Shown here one piece after another: positions 5,950-55,256 of a stretch of 64,000 nucleotides of DNA (position 1 is its first letter; every line of letters starts with the position of its first letter). The notes under the pieces are model-generated. The model was not told the DNA's origin. It did not search any database and saw only the letters and a list, made by a program, of their open reading frames with translations. The position numbers were made by a program, and so were the translations under genes. This DNA comes from Candidatus Saccharimonadota bacterium. GTDB lineage: Bacteria > Patescibacteriota > Saccharimonadia > Saccharimonadales > Saccharimonadaceae. The stretch spans positions 388,113 to 452,112 of the forward strand of contig CP066696.1 in assembly GCA_016432585.1 (NCBI GenBank), written 5' to 3'.

Positions 5950-6891
5950 ATGAGCGGAAAAATACGAGACGTTGTTATGATCGGGGCTGGCCCAAGTGCG
6001 CTTGCTGCCGCTGTTTATACGACGCGAGAGGATATCGACACGGTACTGTATGAAAAAGGCGTTATTGGCGGCCTAGCGGCAATAACCGATCAAGTCGATA
6101 ACTACCCTGGTTTTCCAGATGGCGTTCCTGGCCTTGAGTTGGCAGATCGCCTGCAAAAGCAAGCCGAGCGTTTTGGCGCCGAAATTGAATTCGGTGAGGT
6201 ATCTTCGATCCGCGATAATGGCGCTACTAAAATTGTCGTTGTTGACGGTGAAGAGGTAGAGGCAAAGACAGTGCTTATTGCAACCGGAAGCGACTACAGT
6301 AAGATTGGCGTTCCTGGCGAGCAGGAGTATTATGGCCGCGGCGTTCACTACTGTGCAACATGCGACGGAGCCTTCTACCGTGACAAACGACTTGTTGTTG
6401 TAGGCGGGGGCAACTCTGGATTTCAAGAGGCGATCTTCCTTACTCGCTTTGCGTCGCATATTGATTTGCTCGTACGCAGCACGGTAAAAGCAAGCGAAAT
6501 TCTGCAGCATGACATGCAGAAATACGTCGATGAAGGCAAGGTGACAATTCACTTGCAGACGGAAACGAAAGAGATCGTTGCAACGGACAATAAAATTACC
6601 GAAGTAAAAGCTGTCAAAAATGGCGAGCCAATCTCGTTTGCAACCGACGGTGTGTTTGTCTTTGTCGGTTTAAAGCCAAATACGCAGTTTCTTGAGGGGA
6701 GCGGTATCGAGTGTGACGAGCAGGGGCTTATTAAAACCGACAGCCACTTATCGACGAATATACCCGGTATTTATGCCAGTGGTGATGTTCGAAGTGGGGC
6801 AACAATGCAGGTTGCCAGCGCTGTTGGCGAGGGCGCGACAGCCGCGCTTTCGATACGCGAATACCTAGATGAACAAAAACGCGCCGCTTAG
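5950..6891 (+). CDS. trxB: thioredoxin-disulfide reductase
   Basis: GAGPSALAAA FAD motif, redox-active CATCDG, GGGNSGFQEA NADPH motif. GAAGGA SD before ATG 5950. Confidence 0.9.
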   Translation: MSGKIRDVVMIGAGPSALAAAVYTTREDIDTVLYEKGVIGGLAAITDQVDNYPGFPDGVPGLELADRLQKQAERFGAEIEFGEVSSIRDNGATKIVVVDGEEVEAKTVLIATGSDYSKIGVPGEQEYYGRGVHYCATCDGAFYRDKRLVVVGGGNSGFQEAIFLTRFASHIDLLVRSTVKASEILQHDMQKYVDEGKVTIHLQTETKEIVATDNKITEVKAVKNGEPISFATDGVFVFVGLKPNTQFLEGSGIECDEQGLIKTDSHLSTNIPGIYASGDVRSGATMQVASAVGEGATAALSIREYLDEQKRAA

Positions 6892-6907
6892 TCGGCGTGT
6901 TTTTTTA
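6875..6907. terminator. bidirectional terminator embedded in the converging trxB and phosphodiesterase gene ends
   Basis: AAAAACGCGCCG-CTTAGT-CGGCGTGTTTTTTT. Confidence 0.6.
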
Positions 6908-7586
6908 CTTCGCTTAAAATACGATCAGGGCGATCAGTAACAATACCGTCGATACCTTGCTGCGTTAAAAGCAATGCAGTATGTGGTCGGTTGATGGTAT
7001 AGGCGTAAGTAAACAGGCGAGCGCGTTTTGCGATTTCAACGGCAAGACGGTTGATATACAGACGGTGGAACCCTACTGCCGAAAGCCGTAATTTGCGGTG
7101 ATACGCAATAAAAATAAATGGGTTTTCGCTATGAAGCAGGCTAAGGTTAGCGTGGGTGCTTACCTCGCGGATGGTGCTGAGTTCGCTACCGCGAAACGAC
7201 GAGAAGAGAATATTATTCCAGTCTGAGGCGCGCTTTGCGTAGTTGGCTTTAATTAGCTCGGCAACAACCTTGCCCGTACCGCGGCCCTTAACTTCGATAT
7301 TTAAAAGAATCTTGCCGAAAAACTCATTTAAGACGTCGGCAAGTGGAACGATCGGCTGCTTTTGTGTGCGCTCTAAAAGCTCACTTAGTGTATGGCGAGA
7401 AATGATTGAGGTGTCGTGATGGGTTCGAAGAGTGTGAAAGTCATGTACTAATACCGGGATTTTATCCTTGGTGAGGCGAACATCAAACTCTAAAATATCA
7501 GCATCGGCCTCTACGCCAGCCCGAAGCGCTTCGAGGCTGTTTTCTGGGGCCAAGCCGCCCGCACCACGGTGTCCAATGATTAACAT
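6888..7586 (-). CDS. glycerophosphodiester phosphodiesterase family protein
   Basis: GDPD signature IIGHRGAGGLAPENSLEA and EFDVRLTKDKIPVLVHD. Start placed at 7586 because the -10 box TATAAT (7597-7602, minus strand) overlaps the alternative ATG at 7598. Confidence 0.75.
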   Translation of the reverse strand: MLIIGHRGAGGLAPENSLEALRAGVEADADILEFDVRLTKDKIPVLVHDFHTLRTHHDTSIISRHTLSELLERTQKQPIVPLADVLNEFFGKILLNIEVKGRGTGKVVAELIKANYAKRASDWNNILFSSFRGSELSTIREVSTHANLSLLHSENPFIFIAYHRKLRLSAVGFHRLYINRLAVEIAKRARLFTYAYTINRPHTALLLTQQGIDGIVTDRPDRILSEVKKHAD

Positions 7587-7645
7587 AATTGCTCTCATTA
7601 TACCAAATTTGCTACAATAGAAGTAGTTAAATAACGGAGGCATAT

Positions 7646-8176
7646 ATGGCTGATTTTAATAAAATTCTAACTCCTGGCGATGTTGATGGCGGCGTTATCA
7701 ACGTTGTTGTTGAAATTCCGACCGGCAGCTCTCATAAAATTGAATGGAACCGCGAGCTTGCTGTGATGCAGCTTGACCGCGTAGAGCCTGCGATTTTTGC
7801 AAAGCCAACCAACTACGGCTTTATTCCACAAACGCTCGACGAAGATGGCGACGAGCTAGACGTTCTGCTTATTACGAACGAGCCGCTGCCAACGGGCATC
7901 TTTTTGGAAGCGAAAGTTATCGGTGTTATGAAGTTTTCTGATGATGGCGAAGTAGACGACAAGATTGTAGCGGTACCTGCAGATGACCGTAATACTGGCA
8001 ACGCGATTAACTCGCTGAGCGACTTGCCTGCGCAGCTTATCAAGCAGATCGAATTTCACTTTAATCACTACAAAGACCTTAAAAAACCAGGGACAACAAC
8101 TGTTCAAAGCTGGGGTGACGTAGAAGAAGCAAAGAGCGTTATTCACGAATCTATCGAACGCTGGAACAACCAGTAG
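7646..8176 (+). CDS. ppa: inorganic pyrophosphatase (family I)
   Basis: 176 aa. NVVVEIPTGSSHKIEW, DGDELDVLL and DDKIVAV are typical family I PPase strings. GGAGG SD. Confidence 0.9.
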   Translation: MADFNKILTPGDVDGGVINVVVEIPTGSSHKIEWNRELAVMQLDRVEPAIFAKPTNYGFIPQTLDEDGDELDVLLITNEPLPTGIFLEAKVIGVMKFSDDGEVDDKIVAVPADDRNTGNAINSLSDLPAQLIKQIEFHFNHYKDLKKPGTTTVQSWGDVEEAKSVIHESIERWNNQ

Positions 8177-8190
8177 AAGCCGATTGAAGC

Positions 8191-8224
8191 AAAAATAACC
8201 CGCATAGTAGCGGGTTATTTTTTT
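8191..8224. terminator. bidirectional terminator between ppa and rel
   Basis: AAAAATAACCCGC-ATAGTA-GCGGGTTATTTTTTT. Confidence 0.75.
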
Positions 8225-29880: not shown

Positions 29881-30123
29881 ATGGGTTGGATTGGATGGAT
29901 TATATTGGGTGGACTTGCGGGGCTTGTCGCTAATATGATCATGAAAGAAGAGGGTGGTCTATTTAAGAACATTATTCTTGGTGTTGTCGGTGGGCTTGTT
30001 GGTGGTGGAATTGTCGACATGCTCGGTGGAACCGGCGTCAATGGGTTCAATATTTACAGCTTTATCGTTGCAGTATTCGGCGCGATGTTGTTGATCTACC
30101 TTGGCCGACTTATTAAAAAATAG
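29881..30123 (+). CDS. GlsB/YeaQ/YmgE family (transglycosylase-associated) stress membrane protein
   Basis: 80 aa, Gly-rich TM helices (GWIILGGLAGLVA...GVVGGLVGG). Confidence 0.8.
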   Translation: MGWIGWIILGGLAGLVANMIMKEEGGLFKNIILGVVGGLVGGGIVDMLGGTGVNGFNIYSFIVAVFGAMLLIYLGRLIKK

Positions 30124-30153
30124 TCAGATTTTTCTGGCGGATAGGAGAACGAA

Positions 30154-30393
30154 GTGGACTGGGCACAAATTCTTGTTATATTACTGTCGATCTTTTTAGC
30201 AATCTTCCTTTTGCTTGCGATTGTGCTCACAGCGCTACTTATTAAAGTAACGCGGCAAATTAAATCCGTCACTAACTCGGCGCAGCGTACAGCGGAGCAT
30301 ATGGAATCGGCCGTTGCAGGACTTGGTAAAACGATTTCGCCGATGTTTGTTATGGGGATTATTAAAAAGTTTATGAAAAAAGATAAGAAATAG
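30154..30393 (+). CDS. small membrane protein (possibly DUF948/YtxG-like)
   Basis: GTG start with AGGAG SD. 79 aa, one N-terminal TM then an amphipathic helix. Sits directly upstream of a YtxH-like gene. Confidence 0.5.
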   Translation: MDWAQILVILLSIFLAIFLLLAIVLTALLIKVTRQIKSVTNSAQRTAEHMESAVAGLGKTISPMFVMGIIKKFMKKDKK

Positions 30394-30402
30394 GAGAACC
30401 GT

Positions 30403-30648
30403 ATGTCTAAAGGTAAATTTGCACTCGGAGCAGTTATCGGAGCAGTGGCAGGAATTGTTGCGGGAGTACTCTCTGCTCCAAAGAGCGGTAAAGAAACTCG
30501 TGCAGATATCAAAGACCGCGCGGCGGAATTAAAGGAGCAAGCGGCTGCAAAGGCGGAAAAGGCTAAAGCTCGCGGCGAATCTGTCGTTGAGGAAGTTAAA
30601 GAAAAGGTAGAGCACTACAAAGAGCGCTCCGGCCTAGAAAAGAAGTAA
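30403..30648 (+). CDS. YtxH domain-containing protein
   Basis: 81 aa. GAVIGAVAGIVAGVLSAPKSGKETR is the classical YtxH N-terminal string, followed by a Lys/Glu/Ala-rich helix. Confidence 0.7.
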   Translation: MSKGKFALGAVIGAVAGIVAGVLSAPKSGKETRADIKDRAAELKEQAAAKAEKAKARGESVVEEVKEKVEHYKERSGLEKK

Positions 30649-40497: not shown

Positions 40498-40515
40498 TAA
40501 TTCTCGCTATCTTTA

Positions 40516-40545
40516 AAAACACCCGCTTTTAGTGGGTGTTTTTTG
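40516..40545 (+). terminator. rplS terminator
   Basis: ACACCCGC-TTTTA-GTGGGTGT followed by TTTTT. Confidence 0.75.
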
Positions 40546-40563
40546 TGTCGTCATATGGTGAAA

Positions 40564-40621
40564 CCCCGCTCCTATGAGCGAGATCTCACCATAAATGAGG
40601 TTCTCGCTGACTGTAGCGGGG
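40564..40621 (-). terminator. long composite hairpin (7+7+4 bp) 10 nt downstream of the 99-aa island gene
   Basis: CCCCGCT/AGCGGGG, AGCGAGA/TCTCGCT and CTCA/TGAG nested stems. Only a short U-run follows on the minus strand. Confidence 0.4.
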
Positions 40622-40631
40622 TAGGGGCTGG

Positions 40632-40931
40632 TCAGATACGGCCGAGGCGGTCGGCAATCTCCAGCTTGGCGTGGCTCCGAGCATCCTCTCCGTCGAACAT
40701 GGCGTCGGTGAAGTTGTCGGTCATGGTGAAGAGTAGGCGCTTCATCGCGTCGGGCGTATCCAGCTCGCTGATCTTGCGGACCAGCATGTCGGCGAATTCC
40801 TCGACGGTCATCGTCTTGCCAGCCTCCTCGAGGAGAAGGCCGGGGAGTTCTCGTGGGGTTTTGTCGAAGCCCACGATCCCTCTCAGTCGACGCTCCATGA
40901 GTCGAGTGTCGACCAGTCTAACATTTGACAT
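40632..40931 (-). CDS. hypothetical protein (99 aa) in a GC-rich insertion
   Basis: GGAGG SD 7 nt before ATG 40931. Own TTGACA-17-TATTGT promoter. About 59% GC by hand count. No family recognised. Confidence 0.6.
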   Translation of the reverse strand: MSNVRLVDTRLMERRLRGIVGFDKTPRELPGLLLEEAGKTMTVEEFADMLVRKISELDTPDAMKRLLFTMTDNFTDAMFDGEDARSHAKLEIADRLGRI

Positions 40932-40936
40932 GTCAA
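40925..40936. repeat. perfect 12-bp palindrome TTGACATGTCAA centred on the start codon of the 99-aa island gene
   Basis: Read directly. A related half-site, TGTCAA, recurs at that gene's -35 (40993-40998). Confidence 0.6.
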
Positions 40937-40969
40937 AGCCTCCAAGCAGAAAGGTAACTAACCGAATGA

Positions 40970-40998
40970 ACAATAAATGATTTATGTGCATGTGTCAA
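40970..40998 (-). promoter_or_regulatory. promoter TTGACA-17-TATTGT for the 99-aa island gene
   Basis: Minus-strand TTGACA at 40993-40998 and TATTGT at 40970-40975. Confidence 0.55.
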
Positions 40999-41017
40999 TG
41001 GTAAGAGATAAGATGAT

Positions 41018-41039
41018 AGTGCCCGCCGGGCCGGACACT
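41018..41039 (-). terminator. terminator hairpin of the 105-aa island gene
   Basis: On the minus strand: AGUGUCCG-GCCCGG-CGGGCACU (8 bp including one G.U that is a C/A mismatch on the + strand), followed by AUCAUCUUAUCUCUU. Confidence 0.5.
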
Positions 41040-41074
41040 ATCGCCGTAATCGACAGTGTGCGCAGATCAGCGGG

Positions 41075-41392
41075 CTACGCCTTAGTATCTACCTGCGCGA
41101 ATATTCGTAACGCCTCGCTCTGCACTCGTTGGTCGCGCACCAGTGCCTTGATATAGCCCGGCACGAGCATCGTCAGTGTTACGGCCATCGCCCCGCTTTG
41201 GAATCTCGTGCAGTATGCTTCGATTTCAGAGGTGAGCATGGTGACGACGCCCTCGGCGGTAAGGTCCGTCGATGAATAGTTGGCAACTTGGGAATGGAGA
41301 TACTGGGCGTGATGTTGACTGGGGCTGACTGTAGCCAGGCGCTGCAATACCTCGCGGCGCGCTGGCATCGTGAACGTTCGTCTACTCGACAT
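41075..41392 (-). CDS. hypothetical protein (105 aa) in a GC-rich insertion
   Basis: GGGGGAG SD before ATG 41392. Own TTGACT-17-TATTGT promoter and own terminator hairpin (41018-41039). No family recognised. Confidence 0.6.
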   Translation of the reverse strand: MSSRRTFTMPARREVLQRLATVSPSQHHAQYLHSQVANYSSTDLTAEGVVTMLTSEIEAYCTRFQSGAMAVTLTMLVPGYIKALVRDQRVQSEALRIFAQVDTKA

Positions 41393-41458
41393 GACTCCCC
41401 CTGTATTCGCAGGTTGTTAAGGTTAATTAAACAATACCACTGTACATATGGGGAGTCA
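41392..41458. repeat. 9-bp inverted repeat TGACTCCCC (41392-41400) / GGGGAGTCA (41450-41458) bracketing the promoter of the 105-aa island gene
   Basis: One arm overlaps the SD/start codon and the other overlaps the -35. Confidence 0.55.
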
Positions 41459-41459
41459 A
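41431..41459 (-). promoter_or_regulatory. promoter TTGACT-17-TATTGT (TGG-extended) for the 105-aa island gene
   Basis: Minus-strand TTGACT at 41454-41459 and TATTGT at 41431-41436. Confidence 0.55.
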
Positions 41460-41478
41460 TTTGTGCTACGATACATGT

Positions 41479-42405
41479 ATGATTGTGGGGATAGACGAGG
41501 TTGGCCGAGGGGCCTGGGCTGGGCCTATGGCCGTGGGTGCGGTACTTTTGGGCGGCGCCTCTATTGAAGGCCTTACAGACAGTAAAAAGCTAACGAAAAA
41601 ACAGCGCGAGCGCCTTGATATCGAAATACGACAGAAAGCGCTTGCTATTGGAATTGGCTGGGTGAGTGCGCGGACTATCGACGAGATAGGACTTAGCGCG
41701 GCGCTAAAATTAGCAGCAATGCGAGCCTTGGCGCATATACGCGGCGACTACAAAGAGATTATTATCGACGGCACGATCCGGCTTGTTGATGATCCGCGGG
41801 TAACGCTTATGGCCAAGGCGGATTTACTGGTGCCGAGCGTATCGGCTGCTTCTATTGTCGCTAAAGTGGCGCGGGATAATTACATGAAACATATTGATAA
41901 GGTGTTTCCAGGATACAAGTTTGGCAGTCATGTAGGATATGGCACGGCTAGCCACCGCGCTGCAATACAAGAAAAAGGCGTTTCGCCGATTCACCGTCTT
42001 TCGTACGCACCGCTTAAACAATATCAAGCTACTCCACGGATTGCTCCTGCGCCCAGTGTTCGCACGACAAAGCAAATAGGCGATACTGCTGAAAAAGTCG
42101 TTGAAGCACATCTTGCAAGTGTAGGCCATGTGATATTGGCGCGTAATTGGCGAACCAAGTACTGTGAAATCGATATTGTCTCGCGACTTGGTGATACGGT
42201 GTACTTTACAGAGGTAAAGTATCGAAAAACCGACAATCAGGGTGGAGGGCTTGCCGCAATTACAGCTAAAAAGCAGCGACAAATGGCATTTGCTGCCGAG
42301 TTTTATGCAACGAAAAACAACATGAGTGCGACAGACATGCGACTGGCTGCGGCCGACGTTGCCGGCCGCGTTCCGACGCTAAAGACTTTTCTAGAGCTTG
42401 GCTAG
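41479..42405 (+). CDS. rnhB: ribonuclease HII fused to a YraN (UPF0102) endonuclease-like domain
   Basis: The N-terminal ~190 aa are RNase HII (GIDEVGRGAWAGPM, DSKKLT, SAASIVAKV). The C-terminal ~100 aa are UPF0102/YraN (GDTAEKVVEAHL...ILARNWRTKYCEIDIV...VYFTEVKYR). Single uninterrupted frame. Confidence 0.85.
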   Translation: MIVGIDEVGRGAWAGPMAVGAVLLGGASIEGLTDSKKLTKKQRERLDIEIRQKALAIGIGWVSARTIDEIGLSAALKLAAMRALAHIRGDYKEIIIDGTIRLVDDPRVTLMAKADLLVPSVSAASIVAKVARDNYMKHIDKVFPGYKFGSHVGYGTASHRAAIQEKGVSPIHRLSYAPLKQYQATPRIAPAPSVRTTKQIGDTAEKVVEAHLASVGHVILARNWRTKYCEIDIVSRLGDTVYFTEVKYRKTDNQGGGLAAITAKKQRQMAFAAEFYATKNNMSATDMRLAAADVAGRVPTLKTFLELG

Positions 42406-44948: not shown

Positions 44949-45638
44949 ATGAAACGCACCTACCGTATCCGACGCTTTGTTGCGGTGATTGTAGCGACGA
45001 TTGGACTCGGCGCTATTATTTTTACGCACCCCGATTTGCAACAGCCCATGGCGCCGCAGGCAACCGAAAATCAGGCAGCTAGCGAAGCGCAAACGGCACT
45101 AGATACACTAGAGGTAAAGGGGAGAGCGCCAAAAACCGGCTACGAACGCTCGCAGTTTGGTGATGGCTGGGCAAGCAGCGGCGGATGCGACACGCGAAAC
45201 AGTATCTTGCGCCGAGATTTGAGTAATGTGGCGATGAATGAAAAATGCCAAGTTGTCAGTGGTACACTAAACGACCCATATACTGGCAAGGTAATTATGT
45301 TCACACGTGGCGAAACATCTAGCCAATCGGTGCAGATCGATCATGTGGTGGCACTTAGCGACGCGTGGCAGAAAGGTGCGCAGCAATTGTCGTACGAGCG
45401 TCGTAAAGAGCTGGCAAACGACCCGTTGGAACTTTTGGCGGTAGAGGGCGCGGCGAATATGCAAAAATCAGATGGCGACGCGGCGACGTGGCTTCCACCA
45501 AATAAACCGTTTCGTTGTCAGTACGTGGCTCGGCAAATCGCCGTAAAAAAGAAATACAGCCTGTGGGTGACGGCTGCAGAAAAAGATGCAATGGTTCGTG
45601 TATTGGTGGCATGTCCTGCGCAAGGCTTGCCAAAGTAA
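44949..45638 (+). CDS. secreted/membrane-anchored HNH-type nuclease family protein (DUF1524-like)
   Basis: N-terminal TM/signal. GCDTRN, VQIDHVVALSDAW and NMQKSDGDAATWLP are typical of DUF1524 (GmrSD C-terminal-like) nucleases. Confidence 0.7.
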   Translation: MKRTYRIRRFVAVIVATIGLGAIIFTHPDLQQPMAPQATENQAASEAQTALDTLEVKGRAPKTGYERSQFGDGWASSGGCDTRNSILRRDLSNVAMNEKCQVVSGTLNDPYTGKVIMFTRGETSSQSVQIDHVVALSDAWQKGAQQLSYERRKELANDPLELLAVEGAANMQKSDGDAATWLPPNKPFRCQYVARQIAVKKKYSLWVTAAEKDAMVRVLVACPAQGLPK

Positions 45639-45651
45639 CTTTGAGGTGCTG

Positions 45652-45674
45652 GTCCCCGCCGTAACGGCGGGGAC
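45652..45674. terminator. 9-bp GC hairpin between the converging DUF1524 nuclease and GtrA-like genes (no U-tract)
   Basis: GTCCCCGCC-GTAAC-GGCGGGGAC. Confidence 0.5.
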
Positions 45675-45699
45675 GGCGAGTAGGACTCCTCGTTGGCAT

Positions 45700-46125
45700 T
45701 TACGCCGATTTTGGCTTGGGCCGACTCCTGAACACGTACCGGAACGTGCCGGTCATATTCAAGAAGCCGATCGTAATGCAGCAGATCAGATACGCCCACA
45801 TGTATGGGACGCTCAACGCTGCCACCAGCACCCAGAACAGGCATTGGCTGGCGATCATGGTGCCTGCCTTGAGGACGTGGTGGCGGCGCCACTGCGGCCA
45901 GAATGGCAGCTTGCGCTGTGCGGGATCGATACACCACCGGTTGAGGCAGAACTGTATCTGGTTCGATACGATTGTTCGTGCCCAGTTGGCGGTCACGGGA
46001 GCAACTCCCATGACGCTGACGAATAGTGCAAGGATGAGAGCGTTGCCGCCCGTCATGCCTGCGCCGATCAGCATGTACCTATACCGCTCGGGCGTTATGC
46101 CGATCTTACGTAGCAATCGGGTCAT
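45700..46125 (-). CDS. GtrA-like membrane protein in a GC-rich segment
   Basis: 141 aa, 4 TM. YRYMLIGAGMTGGNALI...NQIQFCLNRW resembles the GtrA pattern. AGGAG SD before ATG 46125. About 63% GC by hand count. Confidence 0.55.
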   Translation of the reverse strand: MTRLLRKIGITPERYRYMLIGAGMTGGNALILALFVSVMGVAPVTANWARTIVSNQIQFCLNRWCIDPAQRKLPFWPQWRRHHVLKAGTMIASQCLFWVLVAALSVPYMWAYLICCITIGFLNMTGTFRYVFRSRPKPKSA

Positions 46126-46159
46126 TTCGCTCCTAGTTCGAGGTCCAATCTCATATAAC

Positions 46160-46187
46160 ATATTAAAACATATCTACTAAAAGTCAA
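46160..46187 (-). promoter_or_regulatory. promoter TTGACT-16-TAATAT for the GtrA-like gene
   Basis: Minus-strand TTGACT at 46182-46187 and TAATAT at 46160-46165. Confidence 0.45.
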
Positions 46188-46225
46188 GGCGAGTCCGAAC
46201 AGCTGATTGCGATACAATAGAAGAT

Positions 46226-48550
46226 ATGAACGCCACTGAACTTGGTTTTGCAGCCGACCTGCCCATTTTTGATTATCACGAGGCGATTACGTCGGCAGTG
46301 GATGCAAATCAGGTTACTATAATTACAGCTGAAACCGGTGCGGGTAAAAGCACGCAGGTTCCGCAGTATTTGGCCGAGCACGGTTATAGTAAAGTGATTG
46401 TGACGCAGCCGCGTATTCTTGCGGCACGCAACCTGTCGCGGCGCGTCCGCGAAGAGCGTGCTATGCGTACAGGTGTGGATTCGGACGAACTAATTGGCTA
46501 CCGAACGGCGCATGAACGCGATGATGGGCCTGATACTCAGATTTTATACTGTACCGACGGTCTTCAGCTTGTGCGCGAGATTACTGGCAGTGGCACGAGT
46601 GAAAAGCAGGTACTTGTCCTGGACGAAATCCATGAATGGAACGAAAACATGGAGGTGTTGGTGGCATGGGCGAAAAAGCGTTGTCAGGAAGAGCCACGTT
46701 TTAAAGTGGTAATAATGAGTGCCACGATAGAGTCCGAAAACTTGGGTGCGTACTTTGGCACGACGTCTATCATTGCGGTGCCTGGTCGCAGCTACGAGGT
46801 AGTAAAACGTCGCGGAAAAGATCTGATAGCTGAGATTATGCAGCTTCTTGACACAAAAACGAGCAATATGTTGGTATTTTTGCCAGGTAAGGCCGAGATA
46901 GAGAATGTAGGCGAGGCGATTAAAAAGAAGGCACTTGCCAAGGGTGTCCCCGTTATTCCTTTGCATAGCCAGCTAGAGGCGTCTGCTCAGCAGCAGGCGT
47001 TTGCCTCGTATCCTAAGGGTAAAGTGATCCTCTCGACAAATATTGCACAGACCAGCGTTACGATAGATGATATCGACGTGGTAATAGATTCGGGTCTGGA
47101 GCGTCGCAGCGAGGTGCAAAACGGCGTCGAAGGGCTATTTATTGCCCAGATATCGCAGGCTGATAGTTTGCAGCGCGCTGGTCGTGCTGGTCGAACTAAA
47201 AACGGTGAGTATATTTTAGCGCCGTACGATACGATGCCATGTCTTGCTTTTGAAGATAGGCCGCCGTATGGCACGCCCGAAATCCTGCGCAAGCATATCG
47301 ATCGGCTGACGCTTCGGCTTGCAAATGTTGGGATTGATATCGAGCTTCTTGACTTTTATCATGCTCCGAGCCACCGCGCGCTTAAAAATGCCAAGCGTAC
47401 GCTTGTAGCGCTTGGCGCTCTTACGCAATCGGGTGAAGTAACGGCAACAGGCCGGCGCATGGAGCGGTTTCCGGTGGAATCTGCCTTTGCGCGCATGCTT
47501 GTAGAGGCCGAGATGTATTCGCAGGAAGTCCAGGCAAAACTTGCTGCAATTATCAGCATCCAAGAGGTGGGTGGAATCGTAAAAAGCAGCACCCGCTACA
47601 CTGCTTGGCGTTCGTTCACTCGCCAAACGAAGTCTGATCTTTTGGCACAGTACGATGTTTATTTGGCGATTCCGACTATAGACCCAGAGCAGTTTGAAGA
47701 CATGGGGATTATTGGCAAAAATGTCATTAAGGCCCAAGAAACGATGGAACGGCTCGATAGGGATTTGGGCTTTGATCCCAGTAAATTAACACCTATCGAA
47801 AGTCACGAGGTCGAGCCGCTGCTTAAGTGTATTGTCGCCGGGCAAATCGACCAGCTATGGACGGTCGAGCCCGACGGCACGGTGATTCATCTTTCGAACA
47901 ATCAAAAACGCGAGCTTTCAAGTGGTACTGTGGTAGCGCACCCGAAGTTGATTGCGGGCACGCCGTTTGATTTGCAGATCCCGACACCTAAGGGCGACCT
48001 TGAGACACTTCATTTAGTGCAGGGGGTTACTGCGGTCAATCCAGCATGGCTAGAAGGTCTTGTTCCACATTTATTTACGTCAAAGCCAGGCAAAATATAC
48101 TACGATAACGACCAGGGTGCATTGGTGATGCGTCAAGTCGTAAAGTTTAATGGGCGAACTGTTGAGGGTGCTGGTGTGCCGATCACCGATTCAAATCCGC
48201 GAACGCGGCGTATGTTTGCCGATCTTTACGGCGCATGGCTATACGAAAGGTTAGAGCGCGAAAGACGCAATCTTCGCAAGAGTCACAACCGGCGAATACC
48301 AGCAGTATTACTTAGGCAGTTGCAAAAGCAAGTCCGAACTATTACCGGTGGCGCAATATCCCTGGGCGAGCTTAGTCGTCAGCAGCGGGCCGAACTGGAA
48401 TCGCTCGGTAAAATGCAAACACATCTGGGCGATGCATTCATGGCGAAATTAGGAACATCACGAAAAGGTGGCGACCGCTCGGGACAGCAAAGACGAGGCT
48501 GGGAGCCTCGTCATAAACGCAAGTACGATCGTCGAAACGACTATCGTTAA
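46226..48550 (+). CDS. DEAH-box ATP-dependent helicase (HrpA/HrpB-like) with a basic C-terminal tail
   Basis: AETGAGKSTQVPQ, LDEIHEW, SAT, TNIAQTSVTIDDI and QRAGRAGR. The last ~60 aa are Arg/Lys-rich. Confidence 0.85.
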   Translation: MNATELGFAADLPIFDYHEAITSAVDANQVTIITAETGAGKSTQVPQYLAEHGYSKVIVTQPRILAARNLSRRVREERAMRTGVDSDELIGYRTAHERDDGPDTQILYCTDGLQLVREITGSGTSEKQVLVLDEIHEWNENMEVLVAWAKKRCQEEPRFKVVIMSATIESENLGAYFGTTSIIAVPGRSYEVVKRRGKDLIAEIMQLLDTKTSNMLVFLPGKAEIENVGEAIKKKALAKGVPVIPLHSQLEASAQQQAFASYPKGKVILSTNIAQTSVTIDDIDVVIDSGLERRSEVQNGVEGLFIAQISQADSLQRAGRAGRTKNGEYILAPYDTMPCLAFEDRPPYGTPEILRKHIDRLTLRLANVGIDIELLDFYHAPSHRALKNAKRTLVALGALTQSGEVTATGRRMERFPVESAFARMLVEAEMYSQEVQAKLAAIISIQEVGGIVKSSTRYTAWRSFTRQTKSDLLAQYDVYLAIPTIDPEQFEDMGIIGKNVIKAQETMERLDRDLGFDPSKLTPIESHEVEPLLKCIVAGQIDQLWTVEPDGTVIHLSNNQKRELSSGTVVAHPKLIAGTPFDLQIPTPKGDLETLHLVQGVTAVNPAWLEGLVPHLFTSKPGKIYYDNDQGALVMRQVVKFNGRTVEGAGVPITDSNPRTRRMFADLYGAWLYERLERERRNLRKSHNRRIPAVLLRQLQKQVRTITGGAISLGELSRQQRAELESLGKMQTHLGDAFMAKLGTSRKGGDRSGQQRRGWEPRHKRKYDRRNDYR

Positions 48551-54344: not shown

Positions 54345-54933
54345 CCAAGACCCGTTCGCGATACTTAATGATTCGGTAGATGTTGTAGCCCAGCGACTGC
54401 TTGGCTGCGAGCTTGTCCGCGAAATAGACGGCCAGACAGTGCGCGTAAGAATCGTTGAAACCGAAGCGTACGATCAGACCGATGCGGCAAGCCACAGTTA
54501 CAAAGGTAAGACGCCGCGCACCGAGATAATGTTTGGTCCCAGCGGGCATTTGTATGTGTATTTTACCTATGGCATGCACTATTGCTGCAATGTAGTGGTG
54601 GGCGAGGTGGGCTACGGCGCAGCGGTGCTTATTCGGGCGGTAGAGCCAATCGAAGGTGAGGACGCTATGGCGGCGCAGAGACCCTATAAAAATGGCATTG
54701 AGTTAACGAACGGTCCATCGAAATTGTGTCAGGCCCTTGGTATCGACCGTAAAATGAACGGCCATGATCTTCATGAACCTCCGTTTCGGCTTGTTATACA
54801 ACCAAAGCGTCCGCAAGCAGAGATTGTGACGACAAAGCGCGTAGGGATCAGTCAGGCAAAAGAGACGCTATGGCGGTACTATCTACAGGGTAATCCGTAT
54901 GTGTCGGGTAAGCACAGGCACATTGACAAATAA
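54334..54933 (+). CDS. mpg: DNA-3-methyladenine glycosylase (MPG/AAG family)
   Basis: VAQRLLGCELV, IVETEAY, DAASHSYKGKT.R...MFGP.GHLYVY..YGMH.C.NVV. Confidence 0.85.
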   Translation: MKSSQDPFAILNDSVDVVAQRLLGCELVREIDGQTVRVRIVETEAYDQTDAASHSYKGKTPRTEIMFGPSGHLYVYFTYGMHYCCNVVVGEVGYGAAVLIRAVEPIEGEDAMAAQRPYKNGIELTNGPSKLCQALGIDRKMNGHDLHEPPFRLVIQPKRPQAEIVTTKRVGISQAKETLWRYYLQGNPYVSGKHRHIDK

Positions 54934-54950
54934 TAAATAAGGAGTATAAT
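54923..54950 (+). promoter_or_regulatory. perfect sigma70 consensus promoter TTGACA-16 nt-TATAAT
   Basis: TTGACA at 54923-54928 (inside the last codons of mpg) and TATAAT at 54945-54950. 12/12 consensus positions. Confidence 0.7.
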
Positions 54951-54956
54951 AAACAA

Positions 54957-55256
54957 AGGAAGTCCATCCGACTGTCGCCATAACTGGCGCTCTCTAGAGA
55001 TTGAGGTTGAGTAGCTGTGCTGCAGACATTGCTTGCGCTCTACTATCAGCTCACGGGGCAACGTGGGCGCACGCCCGAAGAACCCGAGGTCCCCATGCGG
55101 ATCATCGAAGTTCCTTCGCCGTTCTACCGCCACCCGCCGTCTCTCCAGCTCGTTCCCGACACACGCCCCCAGGGGTAAGTGTCGCGGTGAGCGACGAATG
55201 GGCAACTTGCCGTCACCTGCGCGAATTTGCGTGGGTGACGGCATATTTGCTATTGC
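54957..55256 (+). ncRNA. candidate structured non-coding RNA or nusA leader/attenuator, class not recognised
   Basis: Begins about 7 nt after the consensus -10. 61% GC (147/240 counted). Several local hairpins. Ends in a 14-bp hairpin plus a U-rich tract. No convincing ORF. Confidence 0.35.
55209..55256 (+). terminator. intrinsic terminator-like 14-bp hairpin (GCCGUCACCUGCGC/GCGUGGGUGACGGC, loop GAAUUU) followed by AUAUUUGCUAUU
   Basis: Base pairs checked individually. Two G.U pairs exist only on the + strand transcript. Confidence 0.6.

Follow-up and report, generated by a model that had tools for sequence, protein, structure and literature searches.

Self-contained units of promoter, gene and terminator that sit inserted between conserved genes are known as morons, a concept that comes from lambdoid phage genomics. 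Here we analyze a locus that resembles them: a 0.9 kb cassette of two small genes, orfA and orfB, at positions 40546-41460 of a 64,000-nt stretch of DNA from a Candidatus Saccharimonadota bacterium (contig CP066696.1, 388,113-452,112). We refer to this whole stretch as the window, and the positions below are window coordinates. As in phage morons, each gene of the cassette comes with a sigma-70-type promoter, a Shine-Dalgarno site and a hairpin of its own, the cassette lies between two conserved genes (rplS and rnhB), its composition is unlike that of its surroundings, and its presence is patchy among relatives. Unlike morons, the cassette sits in a cellular chromosome and not in a prophage, the phage searches reported below found no phage homologues, and the cassette appears to have been passed on vertically within a clade and to have duplicated at this site.

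Other described systems share other features with this locus. Orphan immunity-gene arrays of polymorphic toxin systems are alike in encoding small, mostly acidic cytoplasmic proteins, as tandem divergent paralogues whose copy number differs between close relatives; as in such arrays, the cassette proteins evolve faster than their flanks and show signs of allele exchange. On the other hand, the cassette has no toxin gene or toxin-domain cassette nearby and no toxin-like Pfam domain among its syntenic neighbors, its proteins have zero Pfam matches and hence belong to no known immunity family, and each copy has its own promoter instead of being part of an operon. Type II toxin-antitoxin systems also consist of two adjacent genes of ~100 aa, with one acidic and one basic product and palindromes near the promoters. 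The cassette proteins, however, are apparently paralogous and separately transcribed, their pairing is not obligatory, the palindromes are not conserved, and neither protein matches a toxin-antitoxin family. Finally, core-gene integration or recombination hotspots are alike in that the accessory genes at the rplS|rnhB junction vary from one Saccharibacteria genome to another, and in that the cassette has a history different from that of its flanks and an elevated G+C content at third codon positions (GC3). They are unlike in that no integrase, tRNA or attachment (att) site is involved here, and the islet is just 0.9 kb long.

The locus is a hypothetical-protein accessory islet at a core-gene junction, a familiar class and not a new kind of system. 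Two of its traits are mildly unusual: Foldseek finds no PDB or BFVD match for a structure predicted with confidence, and GC3 is in excess whatever the G+C content of the host. We consider it reasonably probable that this small islet holds two independently transcribed, diverged copies of one undescribed family, a judgment that includes the islet origin and the dimeric action proposed below.

Two genes under purifying selection

A sequence-only reading of the window had reported two minus-strand open reading frames (ORFs) of 99 and 105 aa, and we find both: orfA at 40632-40931, with a predicted isoelectric point (pI) of 5.2, and orfB at 41075-41392, with a pI of 9.4. Four metagenomic contigs (L001-L004) carry both genes at the same place. 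Their cassette proteins are 69-81% identical to those of the window, and their flanking proteins 82-98% identical, except for the fast-evolving hyp214 (70-79%). The ratio of nonsynonymous to synonymous divergence (dN/dS) ranges from 0.08 to 0.13 in orfB and from 0.20 to 0.25 in orfA, substitutions cluster at the third positions of the minus-strand frames, and the synonymous divergence of the cassette is of the same order as that of the flanks. We conclude that orfA and orfB are real genes under purifying selection.

Long ORFs do arise by chance in GC-rich DNA, and a 145-aa ORF overlaps orfA on the opposite strand (40543-40980, +), so one could ask whether both genes are spurious ORFs in a GC-rich spacer. 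The selection data just given, together with the 246 homologous clusters described in the next section, already refute this reading; moreover, the promoters and Shine-Dalgarno sites of both genes are conserved, and both proteins have AlphaFold2 (AF2) models with a mean predicted local distance difference test score (pLDDT) above 90. We give it practically no chance of being right. The 145-aa ORF itself was considered as a gene and rejected. It is a by-product of the GC3-rich orfA frame opposite to it: the substitutions in 40543-40980 show the codon pattern of the minus-strand frame, and of the two ORFs the family hidden Markov model (HMM) matches just the one on the minus strand. A gene caller could mis-call this antisense ORF. 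In one database entry, P0001, orfA begins at Met12.

Protein family and probable paralogy

Close homologues were searched for with a word-based method in 5.8 billion proteins, and the wider family with HMMER, using an orfB profile, in 1.84 billion cluster representatives. The word-based search returned a handful of close homologues, and all those whose contig we examined sit at the same Saccharibacteria junction. The orfB profile retrieves 246 homologous clusters (at 50% identity) with E <= 1e-3, nearly all of them ~100 aa long and matching over their full length. The family consensus reads LP..E(M/L)..RL..V...H....LYP.I...G(I/V)V.ML..AI.DY...P.YI.ALVDD..V...AL; in orfB, the conserved positions are P10, R18, L19, D87 and A94, plus hydrophobic core residues. 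Acidic proteins predominate in the family (median pI, 5.3).

While orfB is a typical member of this family, orfA is a divergent one, and its assignment rests on several observations. An HMM built from 48 orfB-type members, with zero orfA sequences among them, finds the window orfA with E = 2e-6 among ~12,000 ORFs, and the orfA of L001 with ~2e-5. A comparison of small orfA and orfB alignments with hhalign gives a weak match, colinear and full-length (E = 0.011). AlphaFold2 models both proteins with confidence (orfB, pLDDT 90.7 and predicted template-modeling score 0.84; orfA, pLDDT 91.5), and the order of secondary-structure elements is identical in the two models: beta-alpha-alpha-beta-alpha-alpha-alpha-alpha. 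From these profiles and models, orfA and orfB are probably diverged paralogues of one undescribed cytoplasmic family of ~100 residues.

Known families give no match. Pfam, PHROGs, NCBIfam and PADLOC report only sub-threshold noise for orfA and orfB; Pfam, PHROGs and NCBIfam report only noise for the 48 family members, as do Pfam and PADLOC for the fusion proteins described below. The family profile has zero matches to PDB sequences. Foldseek finds no match at E <= 0.001 for either model in PDB, or for orfB in BFVD, the best match being an unnamed BFVD entry of 340 aa (TM-score 0.57, E = 0.32). A metagenome scan with orfB produced only a 27-residue match at chance level.

Some metagenomic relatives are fusions. 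P0103 and P0145 are covalent tandems of two family domains. Another five members (P0058, P0070, P0075, P0079 and P0142) share a second, C-terminal domain of ~130 residues that is unrelated to the family domain, with the motif GGANP(Y/F)(Y/H)NQT..GL(F/Y)LE(F/M/Y)(Y/S)YG....(I/V/L)WTPWG.W.F...G(P)VYAI..(V/I)(D/E)G. This domain has no Pfam or PADLOC match, and may work together with the family domain as its functional partner.

The rplS-rnhB junction and the distribution of the cassette

For the distribution of the cassette we examined 80 Saccharibacteria loci (L005-L084), one genome per GTDB species, collected by an RplS scan. RplS is 96-97% identical to the window protein in L001 and L004, and 76-92% identical in the 80 species representatives. 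The gene order rplS-rnhB-M1 peptidase is kept in most of the 80 loci, and the cassette is absent from the locus in 79 of them. The closest GTDB representative (L014) has two orfB-type genes, with 24% identity, and zero genes of the orfA type. Copy number varies among the carriers: a single copy lies at the junction in L090 and L094-97, two copies in the window, L001-4 and L014, and at least four tandem copies beside rplS in L086, while L085 has a truncated copy of 76 aa. The carriers are the genomes with an M1 peptidase 66-90% identical to that of the window; L028 (64%) and more distant genomes lack the cassette. The cassette is conserved at this locus within a sub-lineage, and its codon usage, discussed below, is not the one typical of the lineage.

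What does the junction look like in its absence? In cassette-free relatives (L009, L041, L013, L046 and L006), the rplS terminator gives way directly to a -10 box at a distance of 6-9 nt from the rnhB ATG, an arrangement that implies a leaderless rnhB mRNA. The window keeps this same -10 arrangement (a TACGAT box, seven nucleotides, and then the ATG at 41479), and therefore the cassette lies precisely between the rplS terminator and the rnhB promoter, as the sequence-only reading had proposed.

In 27 of the 71 species representatives with an intact junction, the gap between rplS and rnhB is at most 229 nt; in the other 44 it is 332-1864 nt. These longer gaps hold unrelated genes, such as a serine hydrolase (L032), an APH-type phosphotransferase (L008), a NUDIX protein (L033) and a Cas2/PaaX-like protein (L070), as well as several unannotated families that include a block of two to three genes in L073-L084. 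Across L005-L084, these accessory genes fall at about 6400-8200 in locus coordinates. The rplS|rnhB junction is a recurrent landing site, a hotspot of accessory-gene insertion in Saccharibacteria.

An imperfect 10-nt direct repeat (CATATGGTGA / CATATGGGGA) at the two ends of the cassette was considered as a target-site duplication and rejected. Comparable short repeats, this one among them, number 14 in 1.2 kb, and there is no counterpart in L004 at the rnhB-side position.

Transcription units and their signals

The sequence-only reading gave each gene a TTGAC(A/T)-17-TATTGT promoter, a strong Shine-Dalgarno site and a terminator of its own. The promoter scan does find both promoters. That of orfA (TTGACA-17-TATTGT, 40970-40998, -) agrees with the consensus at 10/12 positions. 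That of orfB (TTGACT-17-TATTGT, 41431-41459, -) has an extended TG and diverges from the rnhB promoter. The -35 and -10 hexamers of both promoters are kept in L001 and L004, with variable spacers, and the TTGAC and -10 box of the orfB promoter are kept in L001, L004, L094, L090, L085 and L014. The scan reports 6 promoter-like sites in 1.8 kb versus 1.5 expected. The Shine-Dalgarno sites can be read directly from the sequence: GGAGG for orfA (40939-40943, -), kept in L004 and L001, and GGGGGAG for orfB (41395-41401, -), of which GGAG is kept in all relatives.

Downstream of orfB, the terminator scan finds a hairpin with an 11-bp stem and a weak T-run (41015-41042, -), which sits between the two transcription units in the 143-nt orfB-orfA spacer and is kept in L001 and L004. 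A long imperfect hairpin directly 3' of the orfA stop codon (40563-40622, -; 21-nt arms, 81% complementary) has no proper T-run. Beyond it lies the bidirectional intrinsic terminator that orfA shares with the convergent rplS (AAAAACACCCGCT-loop-AGTGGGTGTTTTT, 40515-40543; 13-nt arms, 92% complementary), flanked on either side by A/T runs. This terminator is kept in L001, L004, L090, L094 and L014.

A further conserved signal lies 6-8 nt past the -10 box of orfB: AACCTTAACAA (41414-41424, -), with core ACCTTRA. Seven loci or copies, paralogues included (L001, L004, L014, L090, L094), have this core unchanged upstream of the family gene, orfA-type copies keep its ACCTT portion, and the three elements TTGAC, -10 box and ACCTTRA motif recur upstream of each copy examined. 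ACCTTRA could be a transcription-start element or an operator. The window contains a single exact copy of AACCTTAACAA, and near-matches (at most 2 mismatches) show no significant enrichment in it, so that ACCTTRA was dropped as a genome-wide motif. An RNA structure in the conserved 5' untranslated region was dropped as well, as RNAalifold predicts zero base pairs.

Two palindromic elements had been proposed to act as autoregulatory operators. Both are present in the window, but they are not kept in L001 or L004, and an operator role is unsupported. The palindrome on the orfA start codon, TTGACATGTCAA (40925-40936), reads TTGACGTGTCAA in L004, where it is imperfect and has a GTG start, and it is absent in L001. 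The 9-bp inverted repeat (41392-41400 / 41450-41458) is absent in both; one of its arms is the -35 box, and the other is the Shine-Dalgarno site plus start codon. By this comparison, both palindromes are apparently coincidental.

The flanking genes complete the picture. The sequence-only reading had called the neighboring genes mostly leaderless, which holds for rnhB, the one gene checked for it. On the left, rplS encodes ribosomal protein L19 (40078-40497, +; Pfam Ribosomal_L19 on the syntenic gene) and has a leader of apparently ~40 nt. On the right, rnhB (41479-42405, +; Pfam RNase_HII and UPF0102 on the syntenic gene) is leaderless and encodes a protein whose N-terminus, MIVGIDEVGRG, agrees with that of relatives. 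In the window and close relatives, RNase HII is fused to an endonuclease-like YraN/UPF0102 domain (308-312 aa), while an unfused rnhB of 185-198 aa is found in L085 (7281-7877) and L090 (3780-4337).

Base composition, GC3 and the question of a donor

The sequence-only reading put the G+C content of the cassette at 59%. Measured over 40546-41460 it is 55.0%, and only the orfA coding sequence reaches 59%. The window has a mean of 48.0% and a standard deviation of 2.4% (in stretches of 915 nt), and 0.5% of these stretches are as GC-rich as the cassette. Third-position GC shows the anomaly more sharply than the overall G+C: GC3 is 0.76 for orfA and 0.67 for orfB, versus 0.49 +/- 0.06 for 63 ORFs of the window. 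The tetranucleotide distance of the cassette has z = 3.2, and the codon-usage z is -2.6 for orfA and -1.65 for orfB. These outlier tests bear out the earlier description of an inserted accessory cassette of atypical composition in a Saccharibacteria genome, for which the junction comparison speaks too.

The cassette is not the only such region in the window. A second GC-rich islet near 45100-46100 equals it in G+C. Here, 45640-46225 (up to 59% G+C in 400-nt windows) lies between a gene with a GmrSD_C domain (44949-45638) and a DEAD-box helicase gene (46226-48550), and encodes a GtrA/DPMS-type membrane protein on the minus strand at 45700-46161 (Pfam E = 3.7e-9). L001 and L004 have almost zero spacer at this position, which makes it another strain-variable insertion. 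The strongest codon-usage outliers of the window are the short ORFs 30096-30512 (-; z = -3.9) and 54879-55244 (-; z = -3.1).

Where does the GC3 excess of the cassette come from? Family genes have a GC3 of 0.61-0.82 in the Saccharibacteria carriers, whose neighboring genes are at about 0.5. A genome of candidate division CPR2 (L087) has 0.56 versus about 0.35 for neighbors, an organism of 29% GC (L091) has 0.32 versus about 0.15, and L098 has 0.78 versus 0.57-0.75. On a contig that carries Ku and topoisomerase IB genes (L093), the member's GC3 of 0.56 is similar to the 0.50-0.60 of its neighbors. We observe that the GC3 excess is a standing property of the family in each chromosomal host measured (hosts of 29-53% GC), and not an unameliorated relic.

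This bears on the proposal that the cassette was recently acquired from a high-GC donor, such as an actinobacterial host, with its GC excess being the donor composition not yet ameliorated. In its favor are the GC3 of 0.67-0.76 and the codon-usage and tetranucleotide outliers, a cassette missing from 79/80 Saccharibacteria species representatives, and a pair of conserved flanking genes that in many relatives have nothing inserted between them. But the cassette occupies the same site in lineages whose M1 peptidases are only 66-72% identical to that of the window, with copies at 24-42% identity that still have a GC3 of 0.61-0.75. The flanking genes are near synonymous saturation (dS of 1-2) already among the closest relatives; with this divergence in the flanks, and paralogues at 24-42% identity, neutral amelioration should have erased any donor signature. 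The relative excess is alike in CPR2 and in the 29%-GC organism. No actinobacterial homologue was found among the members that have a source name, most of the 246 clusters having no taxonomy. The few members that can be placed are Saccharibacteria or CPR2, both of the Candidate Phyla Radiation (CPR), and the remaining ones come from metagenome contigs (29-53% GC) that are unplaced. Since the excess persists in all carriers of the clade, a recent actinobacterial origin is improbable. The sequence-only reading had inferred a high-GC donor, with Actinobacteria hosts as an obvious source for a Saccharibacteria-type epibiont.

The history of the cassette also differs from that of its flanks. For the window, L001 and L004, site patterns that group the window with L004, L001 with L004, and the window with L001 number 154/83/56 in the cassette and 525/556/660 in the flanks (chi-square p = 1e-14), with synonymous divergence raised on the L001 branch. 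These site patterns fit allelic replacement by recombination through rplS and rnhB. Recombining genes in particular are said to have higher GC3. Two candidates for what upholds the excess are repeated exchange accompanied by GC-biased gene conversion, and selection on mRNA or codon choice. Lassalle et al. 2015 (PMC4450053) proposed that GC-biased gene conversion is a force acting on the GC content of bacteria.

Proposed origin and mode of action

We propose the following origin for the islet. In the ancestor of a Saccharibacteria sub-clade, a single promoter-gene-terminator unit would have landed where the rplS terminator meets the leaderless rnhB promoter, and the entire unit would then have been duplicated in tandem. 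Tandem duplication of a complete unit would explain why each copy has its own promoter and why ACCTTRA recurs upstream of the copies. Later, copy number would have changed between one, two and at least four, with occasional decay, and alleles may be swapped by homologous recombination via the conserved flanks.

As for what the proteins do, the lack of any evident conserved residues of a catalytic type makes them look non-enzymatic. They probably act as dimers: a homodimer where there is a single gene, an acidic-basic orfA-orfB heterodimer in this genome, and a covalent tandem in some metagenomic relatives. The hints of dimers are the two-domain fusions P0103 and P0145 and the opposite pI values of orfA and orfB. 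Outside Saccharibacteria, family members occur in variable or mobile-looking contexts (L093 and L099, described below, and a member next to an ECF sigma factor gene), in line with an accessory role. Such dimers might bind another macromolecule and so neutralize or modulate it, a conflict-type accessory role akin to immunity or anti-defense. A dimeric non-enzymatic binding protein with a role of this kind is a guess, which we offer with low confidence.

Several points weigh against our reading of the locus as an islet of two paralogous, dimer-forming copies. The paralogy draws on weak sequence scores (the hhalign probability is 3.9%) and on the order of secondary-structure elements, and the dimer and neutralizer ideas solely on fusions, charge and context. 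No toxin, defense or secretion gene adjoins the cassette in the window. The fairly close relative L028 lacks the cassette, so that the origin of the cassette could be more complex than one gain. The large share of clusters without taxonomy makes a GC-rich source pool possible. Finally, the mosaic signal comes from three genomes only, and a rate change specific to the L001 lineage could produce it.

The functional alternatives have to be weighed against the same data. The sequence-only reading had suggested a toxin-antitoxin or otherwise self-regulated pair; in full, this would be a type II toxin-antitoxin or a matched toxin-immunity pair, autoregulated via the palindromes. Two adjacent same-strand genes of ~100 aa, one acidic and one basic product, and the existence of a palindrome and an inverted repeat are what one would expect of it. 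Yet the two products are apparently paralogues that agree in the predicted order of secondary-structure elements, and not proteins of two folds; the genes lie 143 nt apart, with a conserved hairpin and a second conserved promoter in between, and therefore do not form a bicistronic operon; relatives have one copy, at least four, or two orfB-type copies, so that pairing is not constant; neither palindrome is kept in L001 or L004; and there are zero matches to toxin, antitoxin or defense models in Pfam, NCBIfam and PADLOC. We regard this alternative as very improbable. A phage remnant had been suggested too. In this reading the cassette would be a moron or the degraded remnant of a prophage, left by a phage of CPR bacteria. 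It would agree with the self-contained promoter-gene-terminator units, with the atypical composition, and with the context of two family members elsewhere: L093 (1-12141) is a contig of many small same-strand ORFs with the Ku and topoisomerase IB genes, and on L099 (1-20753) a member lies near conjugation-type genes, on a contig that has a TrwB/DUF87-type ATPase and an HTH-SocA_Panacea gene, both beside the member, as well as a LysM protein. The two contigs may be mobile elements of uncultivated bacteria. Phage databases, however, are negative: zero PHROG matches for orfA, orfB and 48 family members, zero tblastn matches of P0036 in 50,697 INPHARED phage genomes, zero relatives in IMG/VR for P0022, the orfB alignment and the orfA alignment, and no significant fold match in BFVD. 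There is no att-like flanking repeat, the sole flanking direct repeat being the imperfect 10-mer discussed above. The islet has just 0.9 kb, is stably inherited and is under purifying selection, and the Pfam domains of its syntenic neighbors are all cellular (L19, malic enzyme, RNase HII, M1 peptidase, GmrSD_C and DEAD helicase), the neighbors in the window being unscanned for integrase or phage domains. A phage remnant is thus unlikely.

The main functional alternative to a neutralizer is a DNA-binding regulator that acts on ACCTTRA: a small protein with a ribbon-helix-helix-like N-terminal beta-alpha-alpha element that regulates its own gene. The N-terminal strand-helix-helix and the motif x-L-P-x3-E-(M/L)-x2-R-L presumably recall ribbon-helix-helix proteins, seven copies have an unchanged ACCTTRA at a fixed upstream position, the exact match to AACCTTAACAA is unique in the window, and one member follows the gene of an extracytoplasmic function (ECF) sigma factor (L091). 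On the other hand, orfA, orfB and the 48 members show no ribbon-helix-helix or other DNA-binding Pfam domain even at E <= 10, Foldseek finds no match, the N-terminal strand pairs with the second strand of the same chain in the AF2 models, and the family is mostly acidic. All in all, the regulator is an unlikely explanation. At the other end, our reading of the islet can be extended into a bolder one, in which the family is a new fold that marks a conflict locus exchanged by recombination in CPR epibionts, its GC3 being a footprint of gene conversion or of mRNA selection and its products dimeric neutralizers. Tandem paralogues would then diversify and swap between strains through the rplS and rnhB flanks, and the neutralized factor would derive from the host, a phage or a competitor. 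We find this extension conceivable, if doubtful.

Implications

A gene family with a strong and lasting GC3 excess calls for caution with composition-based calls of horizontal transfer. The insertion hotspot at rplS|rnhB could help in choosing neutral insertion sites in epibionts that are hard to engineer. The analysis also defines a hitherto unannotated family of small proteins, with 246 clusters and a confident predicted structure that has no Foldseek match in PDB or BFVD. If its proteins mediate conflict between epibiont and host, or conflict with phages, they would be new players in CPR biology.

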